Source of the DNA: a virus
Taxonomy: Duplodnaviria; Heunggongvirae; Uroviricota; Caudoviricetes
Virus record (IMG/VR): IMGVR_UViG_2693429680_000009
Direction: 5' to 3' (one strand)
DNA length: 4,976 bases
Positions within the stretch are counted from its first letter, which is position 1; each line of letters opens with the position of its first letter. Both the position numbers and the translations under genes were made by a program. Positions 1 to 4,976 of this stretch are shown in pieces. The notes under the pieces were generated by a model. It was not told where the DNA came from and searched no databases. It worked only from the letters and a program-made list of their open reading frames with translations.

Positions 1-72
1 GGGAAAAATATCATCAGATGGCTGCTTAAAAAAAGAACAAATGGTAGTGTCCGCTATTGCCAGTACACCTCA
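1..72. repeat. Left copy of a 72-bp perfect terminal inverted repeat (partner at 4905-4976)
   Basis: Reverse complement of 4905-4976 matches 1-72 base for base (checked in 10-nt blocks); identity ends at 73 (g) versus complement of 4904 (t). The left copy holds an ATG at 41 that opens only a 21-codon ORF (41-106). Confidence 0.95.
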
Positions 73-253
73 GGATAGCGGTCATGTGATGCCGGTTTCC
101 CGGTAACTCAGCACCGGTATCTGAGTCAACGTTTTCTCTACTGGGTCATTTCCGATACGCCCTGCCTGCTGACAGGCTTTCATCACATCTGAAAATATAG
201 CACCCTGACTGATACTGTAGTACCTAAGGTTCCAGAAACTGTGATGTATCCGG

Positions 254-280
254 CACAGAAAAGCCCCTCCGGAGAGGGCT
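254..280 (-). terminator. Putative rho-independent terminator (minus strand)
   Basis: Minus-strand imperfect GC-rich hairpin AGCCCTCTCCGGAGGGGCT (core palindrome CTCCGGAG) followed by TTTTCTGTG. Confidence 0.5.
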
Positions 281-476
281 GGAGAGTGGCGCTATGTGCC
301 ATTGCATGATGCCGGGTGCCTCCCGGTGAATTCAGTACCAGCACCTGAATCCGCGATTATCCCATATACCTACTCGCTGATTGCCCCTCCGCACAGGGGG
401 ATTCACCATGCCAGTTTCTTTTAACAAACTCCCCGCAAAACAGACAACTGTCAACCGTCTGAATTGTGAGACATTT

Positions 477-693: not shown

Positions 694-769
694 TGGTGGC
701 CCTTGCTGGATTTGAACCAGCGACCTGGCGATTATGAGTCGCTCGCTCTCACCACTGAGCTAAAGGGCC
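694..769 (-). tRNA. tRNA with anticodon CAU, most likely tRNA-Ile2 (lysidine type), otherwise elongator tRNA-Met; 76 nt, CCA encoded
   Basis: Reverse complement GGCCCTTTAGCTCAGTGGTGAGAGCGAGCGACTCATAATCGCCAGGTCGCTGGTTCAAATCCAGCAAGGGCCACCA: acceptor GGCCCTT/AAGGGCC, D stem GCTC/GAGC, anticodon stem AGCGA/TCGCC (one A-C mismatch), anticodon CAT, T stem GCTGG/CCAGC, T loop TTCAAAT. Resembles my recollection of E. coli ileX more than initiator or elongator Met; Ile versus Met cannot be settled from sequence alone. Confidence 0.85.
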
Positions 770-871: not shown

Positions 872-1726
872 TTATGACGAATTTACCACAGATTCCGGAA
901 AAATCAACCTAGTTACCTTTTTTAACTGCCGCTCAGCCCATGCTTCTTCAATATCAAACCGAGTCACCAGCGCATCATAGAATTTCTTAACTGTTTTTTC
1001 CCATGACGCGCGTGTTATCTGGTTTGTCACCTCGCATATAGCATTAAATGCCTCCGTTGATGGTAGTCTTTCATAGCCACGACCACCACAACGCTGGCAG
1101 TCTCTGATAACAGGCATACCACGTTTTACCGACTCTTCACGATGAATGGCGACACCACGCCCACGGCAATCCTTACAGGCGGTGGAAACCTCACCCTTTC
1201 CGCCACACTCCGGACAGGCAACTTTTACCACCTCCCTGACTTTTTTCCATTCTTCCCAGTAAGACGGATACACACCTTTCGTACACTTTGCCCATACCGG
1301 CGGCTTACCATCCGGATACTGGATCTTGTTTGTAAAAACCTCGCTTTCAATAAATTTTTTTCCGTGACAGCAGGGGCACTGTTTTTTGCTCGCCGCGCTA
1401 CGGGCATAATCTTCAAACGCATACGAAGCCATAATACGCATCACTGCCGGTTTTATTTCTGCCGGGAGTTTTCTTAACGCCGCCACGCGATCACACCGAC
1501 TGAGTGCATATTCTGTCAGCAATTCTGTTGCCCGCTCTCTGTCATTCATACTAATGCCCATTTTCCCAAGGAACGCAGAAACCCCCATCTCAGCCCGATT
1601 CTGTGTCATGCCCTGCGCGGCCATCACATCAGTGATACTCAGCGCATCTTTCGACGTTGAGGCCGATGCATCAGTCAGGCCGGGGGATTTTGGGGAGTAG
1701 TATTTCGGTAAATCTTCCAGTTTCAT
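872..1726 (-). CDS. Q-type late-gene antitermination protein (284 aa, multiple CxxC zinc-finger-like motifs)
   Basis: Long ORF with CPCC, CPEC...CKDC and CQRC motifs. Sits directly downstream of rusA (ATGA overlap at 1723-1726) and directly upstream of a promoter/terminator pair and tRNA genes, the canonical lambdoid Q position. Family call is by context and recollection, not a search. Confidence 0.7.
   Translation of the reverse strand: MKLEDLPKYYSPKSPGLTDASASTSKDALSITDVMAAQGMTQNRAEMGVSAFLGKMGISMNDRERATELLTEYALSRCDRVAALRKLPAEIKPAVMRIMASYAFEDYARSAASKKQCPCCHGKKFIESEVFTNKIQYPDGKPPVWAKCTKGVYPSYWEEWKKVREVVKVACPECGGKGEVSTACKDCRGRGVAIHREESVKRGMPVIRDCQRCGGRGYERLPSTEAFNAICEVTNQITRASWEKTVKKFYDALVTRFDIEEAWAERQLKKVTRLIFPESVVNSS
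880..907 (-). promoter_or_regulatory. Putative late promoter (pR'-like) embedded in the last codons of the Q-type gene
   Basis: Minus strand: TTGATT (-35, plus 902-907), 16-bp spacer ending TGG (extended -10 TG), TAAATT (-10, plus 880-885). Predicted start near 873, reading toward the terminator at 806-832 and the tRNAs. Confidence 0.45.
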
Positions 1727-3237: not shown

Positions 3238-3519
3238 TTATCCAGTGACGGTAGTCGAGGCTAAGGGCTTTTTTAACCTCGCATCCGCGCCTGCGGTAAC
3301 ACTGAATGAGCCATTCGGCCTGTTCTTCAGTGCATGGGGGATGCTGGTACCAATCAGATTTAAATGCGTGAGAGCGCCGCCCGTGCCTGCTGGCAAAGAC
3401 GGCTGAATTATCAGAATTGTGTAGTCTGGAAGGCAGTGGCTGACAATAGCGCCATTCTCAACGCGCACAGTATAGAGGCCATCTTCACTAAAAATTTCAC
3501 GTAATTCTTCGATTTTCAT
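3238..3519 (-). CDS. Small hypothetical protein (93 aa from the ATG at 3519; the track calls a TTG one codon upstream), in the rem position of Qin-like prophages
   Basis: ORF with RBS GGAAGG 9 nt upstream of the ATG; lies between the hok terminator and the DUF968 gene. No recognisable motif. Confidence 0.45.
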   Translation of the reverse strand: MKIEELREIFSEDGLYTVRVENGAIVSHCLPDYTILIIQPSLPAGTGGALTHLNLIGTSIPHALKNRPNGSFSVTAGADARLKKPLASTTVTG

Positions 3520-3601
3520 CAACAGAATCCTTCCAGATAAATAGCACTCCCCTGTTCGGGGTCCATCCCTCTTCTCCCTGCGCGCTACTTAAGTATTTTT
3601 G

Positions 3602-3739: not shown

Positions 3740-3895
3740 TTACTCCTCAGGTTCGTAAGCTGTGAAGACAGCGACCTCCGTCTGGCCGGTTCGAATTCGT
3801 ACCTCGCAGAGGTCTTTCCTCGTTACCAGTGCCGTCACTATGACGGTTAAACAGATGACGATCAGGGCGATTAACATCGCCTTTTGCTGCTTCAT
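3740..3895 (-). CDS. hokD: Hok/Gef-family type I toxin (51 aa), HokD/RelF-like
   Basis: Translation MKQQKAMLIALIVICLTVIVTALVTRKDLCEVRIRTGQTEVAVFTAYEPEE: single transmembrane helix and conserved Hok C-terminal region; matches HokD/RelF as I recall it. RBS AAGGAG 7 nt upstream of the ATG at 3895. Confidence 0.9.
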   Translation of the reverse strand: MKQQKAMLIALIVICLTVIVTALVTRKDLCEVRIRTGQTEVAVFTAYEPEE

Positions 3896-3952
3896 AGCCT
3901 GCTTCTCCTTGCCTTTCGGCACGTAAGAGGCTAACCTAGATTTGCCGTTCAT
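3740..3952 (-). CDS. mok-like leader reading frame (70 codons), in-frame N-terminal extension of hok
   Basis: ATG at 3952 preceded by GAGG; the frame runs through the hok start. The 19-codon extension MNGKSRLASYVPKGKEKQA resembles the layout of chromosomal mok/hok pairs as I recall them. Confidence 0.55.
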   Translation of the reverse strand: MNGKSRLASYVPKGKEKQAMKQQKAMLIALIVICLTVIVTALVTRKDLCEVRIRTGQTEVAVFTAYEPEE

Positions 3953-4030
3953 AGATTGAGCCTCAGATTAATGTTAAGCGTCTTGCCGGACGCGTAATGT
4001 TAACTGGGGCTTTTCTCTATCTGCCTTTTG
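3940..4030 (+). ncRNA. Expected Sok-like antisense RNA region (not resolved)
   Basis: Inferred from hok/sok architecture only: the antisense regulator should be on the plus strand opposite the mok start. The best plus-strand promoter-like match is weak (TTGCCT 3909-3914, TAACCT 3932-3937) and no clean plus-strand terminator was found; a hairpin GCGTC/GACGC lies at 3976-3993. Confidence 0.2.
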
Positions 4031-4071
4031 GTGTTCATGCCTGAGACAGATAGCCTCAAGCACCCGCTGCA

Positions 4072-4186: not shown

Positions 4187-4531
4187 TCATCGTAAAATAT
4201 CCTCCACGCTTATCAGTCCGTTCCGCTCCAGATAACTCATCGCCTTATCCGGTAATTTGCAGTCTGGCTTCGCTTTCCTCAGTTGCCAGGTTAACTGCTT
4301 TACCAGCATGGTTAACTCATCGACCAGACGCTGATATCCCACTGGTTTGTATTCATGCAATTTACCGGCTGGCTCTGCTGCCAGCGATACCAGTGCGATT
4401 TCCAGAACAGCAATATCCATCTTATATGTGCGGATGATGTCATGGTCGATTGTGCCCGGTATGCACAGTCTCTGTGCTTCAATAGTCTCCTCTGCGTGAG
4501 CTATTAACTGCTCTCTGGTAAAAGTCGTCAT
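4187..4531 (-). CDS. Hypothetical protein, 114 aa, partial paralog of the upstream 55-aa ORF
   Basis: ORF from the track. Its ATG (4529-4531) overlaps the stop of the upstream 55-aa ORF (ATGA). Shares N-terminal MTTFTRE and a central [10 protein letters not shown] motif with that ORF. Confidence 0.55.
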
Positions 4532-4695
4532 GCCGTAGCCCCTTCTTGATATTTTTCAAACCAGAACACAACCGGCTCTGCTTCCAGCGATGCCAGCGCA
4601 ATCCGTGCCAGTTCCATTTGTTCACCACGGGTAAGCCCGTTTTCAAGCGGGTTTTTAATGAACAATTCAATACGTTCTTTGGTAATAGTGGTCAT
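4528..4695 (-). CDS. Hypothetical small protein, 55 aa, absent from the ORF track ([55 protein letters not shown])
   Basis: Hand-translated codon by codon. RBS AAGGAG 6 nt upstream of the ATG at 4693-4695; stop TGA at 4528-4530 overlaps the start of the 114-aa ORF. Confidence 0.5.
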
Positions 4696-4705
4696 GTGTT
4701 ACTCC

Positions 4706-4936
4706 TTAACCCGCAGTGCTTTCAACTGATGAGGGGAACAAAATCTTTTCATCAAACCCTGCATTCATATCATGAACAGCAACACACCAATCCATCGACG
4801 AACGATTATCAAGAGCCTCCATGATTTCATCCATGCGGCGTAGGTCATACAGGTAAATGCTTTTATCGCCAATGGTGTAAAAGCCAATTTTTTTCGGTGA
4901 TGGATGAGGTGTACTGGCAATAGCGGACACTACCAT
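4706..4936 (-). CDS. Hypothetical ORF, 76 aa, whose start codon and first 10 codons lie inside the right inverted repeat
   Basis: ORF from the track. No convincing RBS before the ATG at 4936 or the internal ATGs; its stop sits immediately upstream of the 55-aa ORF's RBS. May be a fragment or have a different true start. Confidence 0.35.
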   Translation of the reverse strand: MVVSAIASTPHPSPKKIGFYTIGDKSIYLYDLRRMDEIMEALDNRSSMDWCVAVHDMNAGFDEKILFPSSVESTAG

Positions 4937-4976
4937 TTGTTCTTTTTTTAAGCAGCCATCTGATGATATTTTTCCC
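4905..4976. repeat. Right copy of the 72-bp perfect terminal inverted repeat
   Basis: Exact reverse complement of 1-72. Confidence 0.95.

Follow-up and report, generated by a model that had tools for sequence, protein, structure and literature searches.

The 55-aa open reading frame (ORF) that runs into the start of a 114-aa ORF in the window, the whole 4,976-nt stretch of viral DNA analyzed here, is probably a recombination chimera that reflects ordinary phage mosaicism, and a mosaic pair of 'EaA-like' genes is our preferred overall explanation for this arrangement. Sequence and profile comparisons assign both ORFs to a modular, heavily shuffled family of accessory proteins from lambdoid and P22-like prophages. 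'EaA-like' is a working name used here for this family (phrog_3323, phrog_60 and phrog_660), which has no Pfam model. The pair is a new, fully mapped member of an already known mosaic prophage accessory gene family, and the current understanding of phage biology is unchanged by these results. If the chimeric origin is correct, the locus provides a clean example of how a small prophage ORF is born when a cassette is exchanged in frame at a short, conserved motif in coding DNA. The same locus is caught in three states: an HNH endonuclease gene followed by the 114-aa gene, the 55-aa ORF followed by the 114-aa gene, and a single 101-aa hybrid gene. The analysis also removes a false lead, that of a new toxin-antitoxin (TA) system at this site.

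Domain composition and relatives of the two ORFs

Direct reading of the sequence bears out the preliminary description of a 55-aa ORF with a strong AAGGAG ribosome-binding site (RBS) and an ATGA overlap with the 114-aa ORF (Table 1), in which the TGA stop codon of the former overlaps the ATG start codon of the latter. The shorter ORF had also been described as missing from the ORF track. It is indeed absent there, but RefSeq annotates both ORFs, so the omission reflects only a length cut-off. In phage vB_EcoS-689R5 the 55-aa ORF carries the name 'EaA protein'.

Table 1. Coordinates of the gene pair, its component modules and the adjoining genes (positions are those of the window).
Feature	Position	Strand	Remarks
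55-aa ORF	4528..4695	minus	RefSeq WP_000207997.1, 'hypothetical'; probably chimeric, N module only
Shine-Dalgarno (SD) sequence AAGGAG	4702..4707	minus	Sequence read directly; 6 nt 5' of the 55-aa ATG (4695-4693)
Codons 1-41 of 55-aa ORF	4573..4695	minus	EaA-type N module (starts MTTITKE)
Codons 42-55 and stop of 55-aa ORF	4528..4572	minus	Same DNA as the 3' end of the ArgO145-type HNH endonuclease gene
ATGA stop/start overlap of the 55-aa and 114-aa ORFs	4528..4531	minus	Plus strand reads 'tcat'
114-aa ORF	4187..4531	minus	RefSeq WP_000206826.1, hypothetical; short complete family member; phrog_660, E = 8e-43
N module of 114-aa protein, residues 1-54	4370..4531	minus	Predicted two-helix hairpin
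C module of 114-aa protein, residues about 68-114	4187..4330	minus	Predicted three short helices
Direct repeat, copy 1	4574..4602		Encodes the shared motif of the 55-aa ORF
Direct repeat, copy 2	4371..4399		Encodes the shared motif of the 114-aa ORF
3' part of upstream 87-aa gene	4706..4904	minus	WP_000224233.1 in intact prophages; phrog_1714
hok/sok type I TA locus, immediately downstream	3740..4065	minus	HOK_GEF (Pfam); Rfam sok 3890-4065, 112 bits

The translations of the two ORFs contain the common N-terminal sequence (MTTITKE or MTTFTRE) and the central motif that had been noticed before. Their N-terminal 41 and 54 residues, respectively, align with 33% identity (BLASTP, E = 1e-5), and both proteins match identical positions of the same PHROG profiles (phrog_60 at 116-165/170, phrog_660, phrog_5117 and phrog_3323), which indicates that their likeness is homology and not chance. 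The partial paralogy that had been proposed therefore holds, in the form of one homologous N-terminal module in both products. A corresponding DNA similarity is also present. The two copies of the direct repeat in Table 1 are identical at 25 of 29 nt and form the top direct repeat of the window, and the coordinates reported earlier were off by only 1-4 nt.

A local tandem duplication was considered as the origin of the two N modules and was rejected, since closer relatives of each are found elsewhere. A DUF551 protein (P0066) has an N-terminus identical to residues 1-47 of the 114-aa protein, and it joins this N allele to the DUF551 domain at the shared motif. The first 44 residues of the 55-aa ORF show 86-93% identity, over 42-44 aa, to P22 EaA, HK620 HkaE and the N-termini of DUF551 and DUF550 proteins (tblastn against phage genomes). 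The modules of other genes are thus much nearer relatives of each N module than its neighbor is, which argues against local duplication.

The N module of this family consists of about 45 residues in two helices. It starts with M-T-T-[IF]-T-[KR]-E, ends with the shared motif, and is followed by a flexible linker and then by highly diverse C-terminal parts: a DUF550 pyrophosphohydrolase domain, a DUF551 domain, a 45-residue C module, or nothing. Alignment of the relatives gives a modular plan of N module, variable middle and C module. The 55-aa ORF matches phrog_3323 (E = 1.3e-19) and phrog_60 (E = 4.3e-18), and the 114-aa ORF matches phrog_660 (E = 8.2e-43). A profile of the N module matched 1596 clusters in a search of 1.84 billion 50%-identity representatives, in proteins of 55-457 aa, and among the matches listed with their best stretch in the N module this stretch starts, with few exceptions, at residue 1-8. 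Among 118 scanned representatives, 21 have DUF551 and 6 have DUF550 (pyrophosphohydrolase), and most of the 118 have no Pfam domain at all. An N module that is this abundant (about 1600 clusters at 50% identity), is joined to DUF550, DUF551 and numerous un-named domains, and lacks a Pfam model would merit a family definition.

The preliminary description had not recognized a family for either protein. Scans of Pfam, NCBIfam and PADLOC returned zero family matches for the 55-aa and the 114-aa protein, and it is the PHROG matches that place both in the EaA-like family. A literature search on both sequences, their accessions and EaA/DUF551 found nothing relevant; the lambda Ea22 papers alone were useful, for comparison.

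The 114-aa protein combines an N module, a linker and a C module. An AlphaFold2 model predicts a hairpin of two helices (H6-26 and H30-51) with pLDDT above 90, a disordered linker at residues 56-62 and a three-helix C module. The pTM of this model is 0.42, according to which the two modules are predicted to be independent of one another. The last 45 residues recur as the C-terminus of family members of 160-200 aa, and the C module also matches N15 genes 45/45.1, an ST64B gene annotated as ead/Ea22-like, and H19J. Foldseek searches with the model recovered generic helical hairpins only from the PDB and BFVD (best E = 1.3 and 0.4), and a profile search of PDB sequences gave a single designed coiled coil (E = 0.065). 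The N module may serve as an oligomerization or adaptor hairpin, and the genes of this family are probably non-essential, dispensable accessory factors of the early operons of lambdoid and P22-like prophages.

The closest relatives of the pair are P22 EaA, HK620 HkaE and the DUF550/DUF551 prophage proteins, which have their N module in common with the 55-aa ORF. P22 EaA and its kin are likewise early-operon accessory genes in highly mosaic regions. P22 EaA itself (317 aa) consists of the N module, PF04447 (dATP/dGTP pyrophosphohydrolase) and PF04448 (DUF551), whereas the 55-aa ORF lacks both domains and the 114-aa protein carries a different, un-named 45-residue C module instead. Neither window ORF has any Pfam domain, which sets both apart from P22 EaA proper. 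The location differs too: the window genes are part of a nin-like region rather than the ea region.

The next closest group is that of the Ea22/ead-like proteins, and some phage records label relatives of the window proteins 'Ea22' or 'ead/Ea22-like'. Lambda Ea22 has three parts (PMC10834534): a short N-terminal segment, a helical stretch and an exchangeable C-terminal domain. This general design resembles that of the window proteins. At one locus (L086) a hybrid of the two window ORFs lies in one gene run with three upstream PF13935 genes, with an 87-aa gene between. Neither ORF matches Ead_Ea22 (PF13935) at E <= 0.1. A pro-lysogenic activity has been described for lambda Ea22 (PMC7093339, PMC10834534), and this role cannot be transferred to the window proteins.

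Recombination joints in and around the 55-aa ORF

Comparison with phage ArgO145 suggests where the two parts of the 55-aa ORF come from. In ArgO145 an identical 114-aa gene lies behind a gene for an HNH endonuclease of 121 aa, which it overlaps by ATGA as in the window, and the C-terminal end of the HNH protein is shared with the tail of the 55-aa ORF. The DNA of the window is 100% identical to ArgO145 from GTTGTGTTCTGG (codon 42) through the 114-aa gene, and it is unrelated 5' of GTTGTGTTCTGG. Codons 1-41 are therefore of EaA type, and codons 42-55 correspond to the 3' end of an HNH gene together with an SD-like sequence (GAAGGGG) before the 114-aa ATG and the ATGA overlap, both of which lie within this tail. 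The joint falls directly after EAEP. The 55-aa ORF keeps just the last 14 HNH residues and is not itself a member of the HNH family: its match to phrog_2118 is limited to residues 31-54 (E = 0.0021), and a Pfam scan finds no match to PF01844 (HNH).

A second joint is located about 10 codons into the gene behind a shared DUF4014 gene. Where two loci are compared (L001 6560-7140 and L002 2880-3520), the 87-aa gene and the HNH gene open near-identically right after the DUF4014 gene (MATLTKKERA and MALTKKQRA). These codons are the putative left-hand homology patch of a cassette exchange. A block composed of the 87-aa gene and the 41 EaA-type codons occupies the place that the body of the HNH gene has in ArgO145, and both of its joints are at short in-frame homologies. 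Such a cassette was probably swapped for the HNH gene body upstream of the 114-aa gene, with the right-hand crossover in frame at the E-P|V boundary. A crossover there would leave the 55-aa ORF with the final 14 codons of the HNH gene, the ATGA overlap and the SD-like sequence that belongs to the 114-aa gene. Parsimony suggests that the HNH arrangement is ancestral and the 55-aa arrangement derived.

The same tail is found behind several different genes. At 83 loci with the 114-aa gene, the upstream partner is an ORF of the 55-aa type (59 loci), an HNH gene (20) or a 61-aa ORF (4) that combines a different N-module allele with the same tail. All 83 partners share the tail sequence and the ATGA, whatever the gene, and a further N allele with this tail is present in P0230. 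Among 5426 complete E. coli genomes, the joint between the EaA-type N module and the tail occurs in 331, and the joint between the HNH gene and the tail occurs in 385.

The DNA that encodes the shared motif is, as judged from these and other gene comparisons, a short homology patch that serves as a recurrent in-frame recombination joint. A 101-aa protein of E. coli and Shigella (P0031) joins the first 37 residues of the 55-aa ORF to the part of the 114-aa protein that begins at SLAAEP. Deleting exactly the 203 bp that separate the repeats, with a crossover inside ATCGCTGG, turns the DNA of the window pair into the gene for this protein. The flanks of this hybrid gene are identical to the window in one locus (L085) and have one mismatch in another (L086). 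It occurs in the same nin context and also in the ea region adjoining the integrase gene. Counts of the hybrid in E. coli genomes are confounded by BLAST having bridged the 203-bp gap, and the one usable figure is an upper limit of 18 records at >=99% identity. A second protein, of 107 aa (P0036), has an unrelated N allele, and the DNA identity of its gene to the 114-aa gene jumps from ~40% to 100% at the IALASL codons. This gene is solitary and has its own RBS, with a 95-nt gap on its 5' side; a ParE/ParD pair comes after the gene, on the opposite strand.

These comparisons suggest that the window pair may collapse to the 101-aa hybrid through a 203-bp deletion. If the motif DNA is a recurrent homology patch, then the pair would be metastable. 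Module exchange in lambdoid phages generally produces the same sharp change of identity at short homology patches on both sides of a cassette. What is specific here is that one coding motif is repeatedly the joint and is present twice in tandem, and this is no difference in principle. Three apparent fusions of the 55-aa and 114-aa ORFs, of 137-168 aa and with a scrambled junction (P0001, P0002 and P0024), come from Logan/ENA assemblies only, and they are most likely frameshift sequencing errors, not true fused genes.

Translation of the pair and alternative readings

Because its SD sequence is strong, the 55-aa ORF is presumably translated, and the ATGA overlap by itself is compatible with translational coupling to the 114-aa ORF. 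Translation of the 55-aa ORF would then help to bring ribosomes to the 114-aa start. The region that initiates translation of the 114-aa gene could in this way include the tail and the ATGA, and any ORF that reads through to that stop would serve. Ribosome delivery of this kind would explain why the same last 14 codons and stop are present in every partner. RNA folding around the 114-aa start detected no significant structure that sequesters the SD sequence (z = -0.33).

The preliminary description had made its proposal depend on conservation of the 55-aa frame in related prophages, and the frame is intact in 59 of the 59 copies examined, with no nonsense or frameshift variants among isolate genomes. 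These copies fall into 16 haplotypes, mostly singletons, and contain 9 synonymous and 8 non-synonymous variable sites, a comparison based on few sites and confounded by gene conversion. An intact frame with these counts would fit a degree of selection on the peptide and speaks against pure debris. The selection signal is confounded by gene conversion from full-length paralogs and by low diversity.

Two readings that differ from the mosaic explanation bear on what the 55-aa product might do. It might be a functional stand-alone N-module 'microprotein' that uses its hairpin to pair with the corresponding module in the 114-aa protein or in other EaA-like proteins and modulates these partners, with the ATGA overlap setting the stoichiometry. 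This seems unlikely, even though the frame is intact in every copy and in about 331 genomes, the SD sequence is strong, the synonymous to non-synonymous ratio is 9:8, and the short architecture with its tail recurs in at least four different N-module alleles. Helical hairpins also commonly dimerize into four-helix bundles. The 114-aa gene does without the 55-aa ORF elsewhere, where it is found behind an HNH gene, alone or as part of a hybrid, and in-frame gene conversion from paralogs would preserve an open frame without selection. An AlphaFold2 model of the natural frameshift fusion P0001, in which the 55-aa and 114-aa parts are joined, shows no confident packing (pLDDT 54.7, pTM 0.41), although this is a crude test that has no alignment depth in the first half. 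We consider it quite unlikely that, in addition, the N-only peptide is a selected microprotein that heterodimerizes with full-length EaA-like N modules, including its neighbor, and tunes or inhibits them while the motif DNA is maintained as a dedicated homology cassette. If true, this cassette would allow in-frame shuffling of effector domains by prophages. Unrelated and apparently random tails are found on many other N-only ORFs (P0154, P0157, P0163 and P0197), which suggests that truncated ORFs of this type are frequent by-products. The same observation counts toward the reading of the 55-aa ORF as debris, either untranslated or giving a peptide that is rapidly degraded, in which case the 114-aa gene alone matters and the frame is open because the event is recent. 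The chimeric origin and the very low diversity of the ORF would fit such a history, as would the insertion sequence (IS) that cuts the gene directly 5' of the 55-aa ORF here and separates this ORF from the rest of the early operon. Debris is nonetheless distinctly improbable, as a consensus AAGGAG at ideal spacing makes translation likely, several divergent N alleles keep the same frame and stop, and interrupted or fused forms are absent from isolate genomes and appear only in the assemblies noted above.

The pair had also been proposed to be a two-component module, such as a TA-like or regulatory pair, at the position of relBE in Qin-like prophages. This reading is not supported, and a TA-like or other obligate two-component module at the relBE position beside hok we regard as very improbable. 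The positional part of the proposal stands. The order Q-ydfU-rem-hokD-relE-relB of the K-12 Qin prophage parallels the order Q-RusA-DUF968-94aa-hok-114aa-55aa of the window, so that both pairs are two small overlapping genes in the same orientation and in the same place relative to hok, rem/DUF968 and Q. Unlike relBE, the window ORFs have no sequence or profile similarity to RelB or RelE, and neither protein matches a TA or defense family in Pfam, NCBIfam or PADLOC. Structure searches produced no PDB match with E < 1 and only generic hairpins in the PDB and BFVD. The two products share a domain, and it is atypical for the components of a type II TA system to share a homologous domain. The pairing itself is not conserved across prophages, which had been proposed as a check: the 114-aa gene is found behind HNH genes (20 of 83 loci; 385 genomes), by itself in P0036 and as part of a fusion in P0031. 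The two genes are thus no obligate pair, and in otherwise identical prophages the pair fuses to one hybrid gene. The small size of the genes and their ATGA overlap would be in keeping with a TA pair, but the overlap probably derives from the HNH gene. Genuine TA pairs of the ParDE/RelE type, encoded on the opposite strand, occupy the adjacent slot in ArgO145 and in one further prophage locus (L089), which is the slot held by hok in the window. The 114-aa gene of the mosaic pair therefore flanks an addiction-module slot and does not fill it.

The surrounding nin-like region

The window corresponds to a lambdoid prophage's nin-like region and contains, in order along the minus strand, the truncated 87-aa gene, the 55-aa and 114-aa ORFs, hok/sok, a 94-aa ORF, DUF968, RusA, Q and two tRNAs. 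A complete genome has replication genes, YdaT, Cro and a LexA-like repressor further upstream. The hok/sok locus is the true addiction module of this region, and it sits in an interchangeable addiction-module slot bounded by the 114-type gene and rem/DUF968.

The two ends of the window (1-72 and 4905-4976) form a perfect 72-nt inverted repeat. Their sequence corresponds to the end of an IS element of the IS3 family (IS600-like), of which E. coli chromosomes and plasmids carry multiple copies, and phage homology begins at 72 on the left and ends at 4904 on the right. These matches and limits define a 4.8-kb segment that is flanked by inverted IS ends. This is either a composite-transposon-like arrangement or a contig that was broken inside repeats. 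The IS end truncates the 87-aa gene at 4905, and a 76-aa ORF that runs from 4936 to 4706 on the minus strand consequently has a chimeric N-terminus, with its first 11 codons within the IS end.

The Q antiterminator gene (872-1726, minus strand) encodes 284 aa with PF03589 and a weak match to a DnaJ-type zinc finger. Prophages with an identical 55/114 region have a different Q of 229 aa (PF06323 in L084 and L087; annotated as 'antitermination protein Q' in L001), and these differing Q genes are further mosaicism within a few kb. Downstream of Q are genes for tRNA-Arg(TCT) and a CAT-anticodon tRNA (517-593 and 694-769, minus strand), the latter predicted to be tRNA-Met by ARAGORN and having a homolog annotated as tRNA-Ile in RefSeq. 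Stx-type lambdoid phages have a similar arrangement of Q and tRNA genes. The Rfam model of the sRNA STnc100 matches positions 251-440 (minus strand), downstream of both tRNA genes (123.6 bits vs a gathering score of 47).

The 94-aa ORF (3238-3522, minus strand) ends 75 nt before the start of DUF968, and only its residues 1-30 match phrog_340. Only 1 nt separates DUF968 from a 90-aa gene in L085, and the 94-aa ORF may be a rem-like gene altered by frameshift or recombination.
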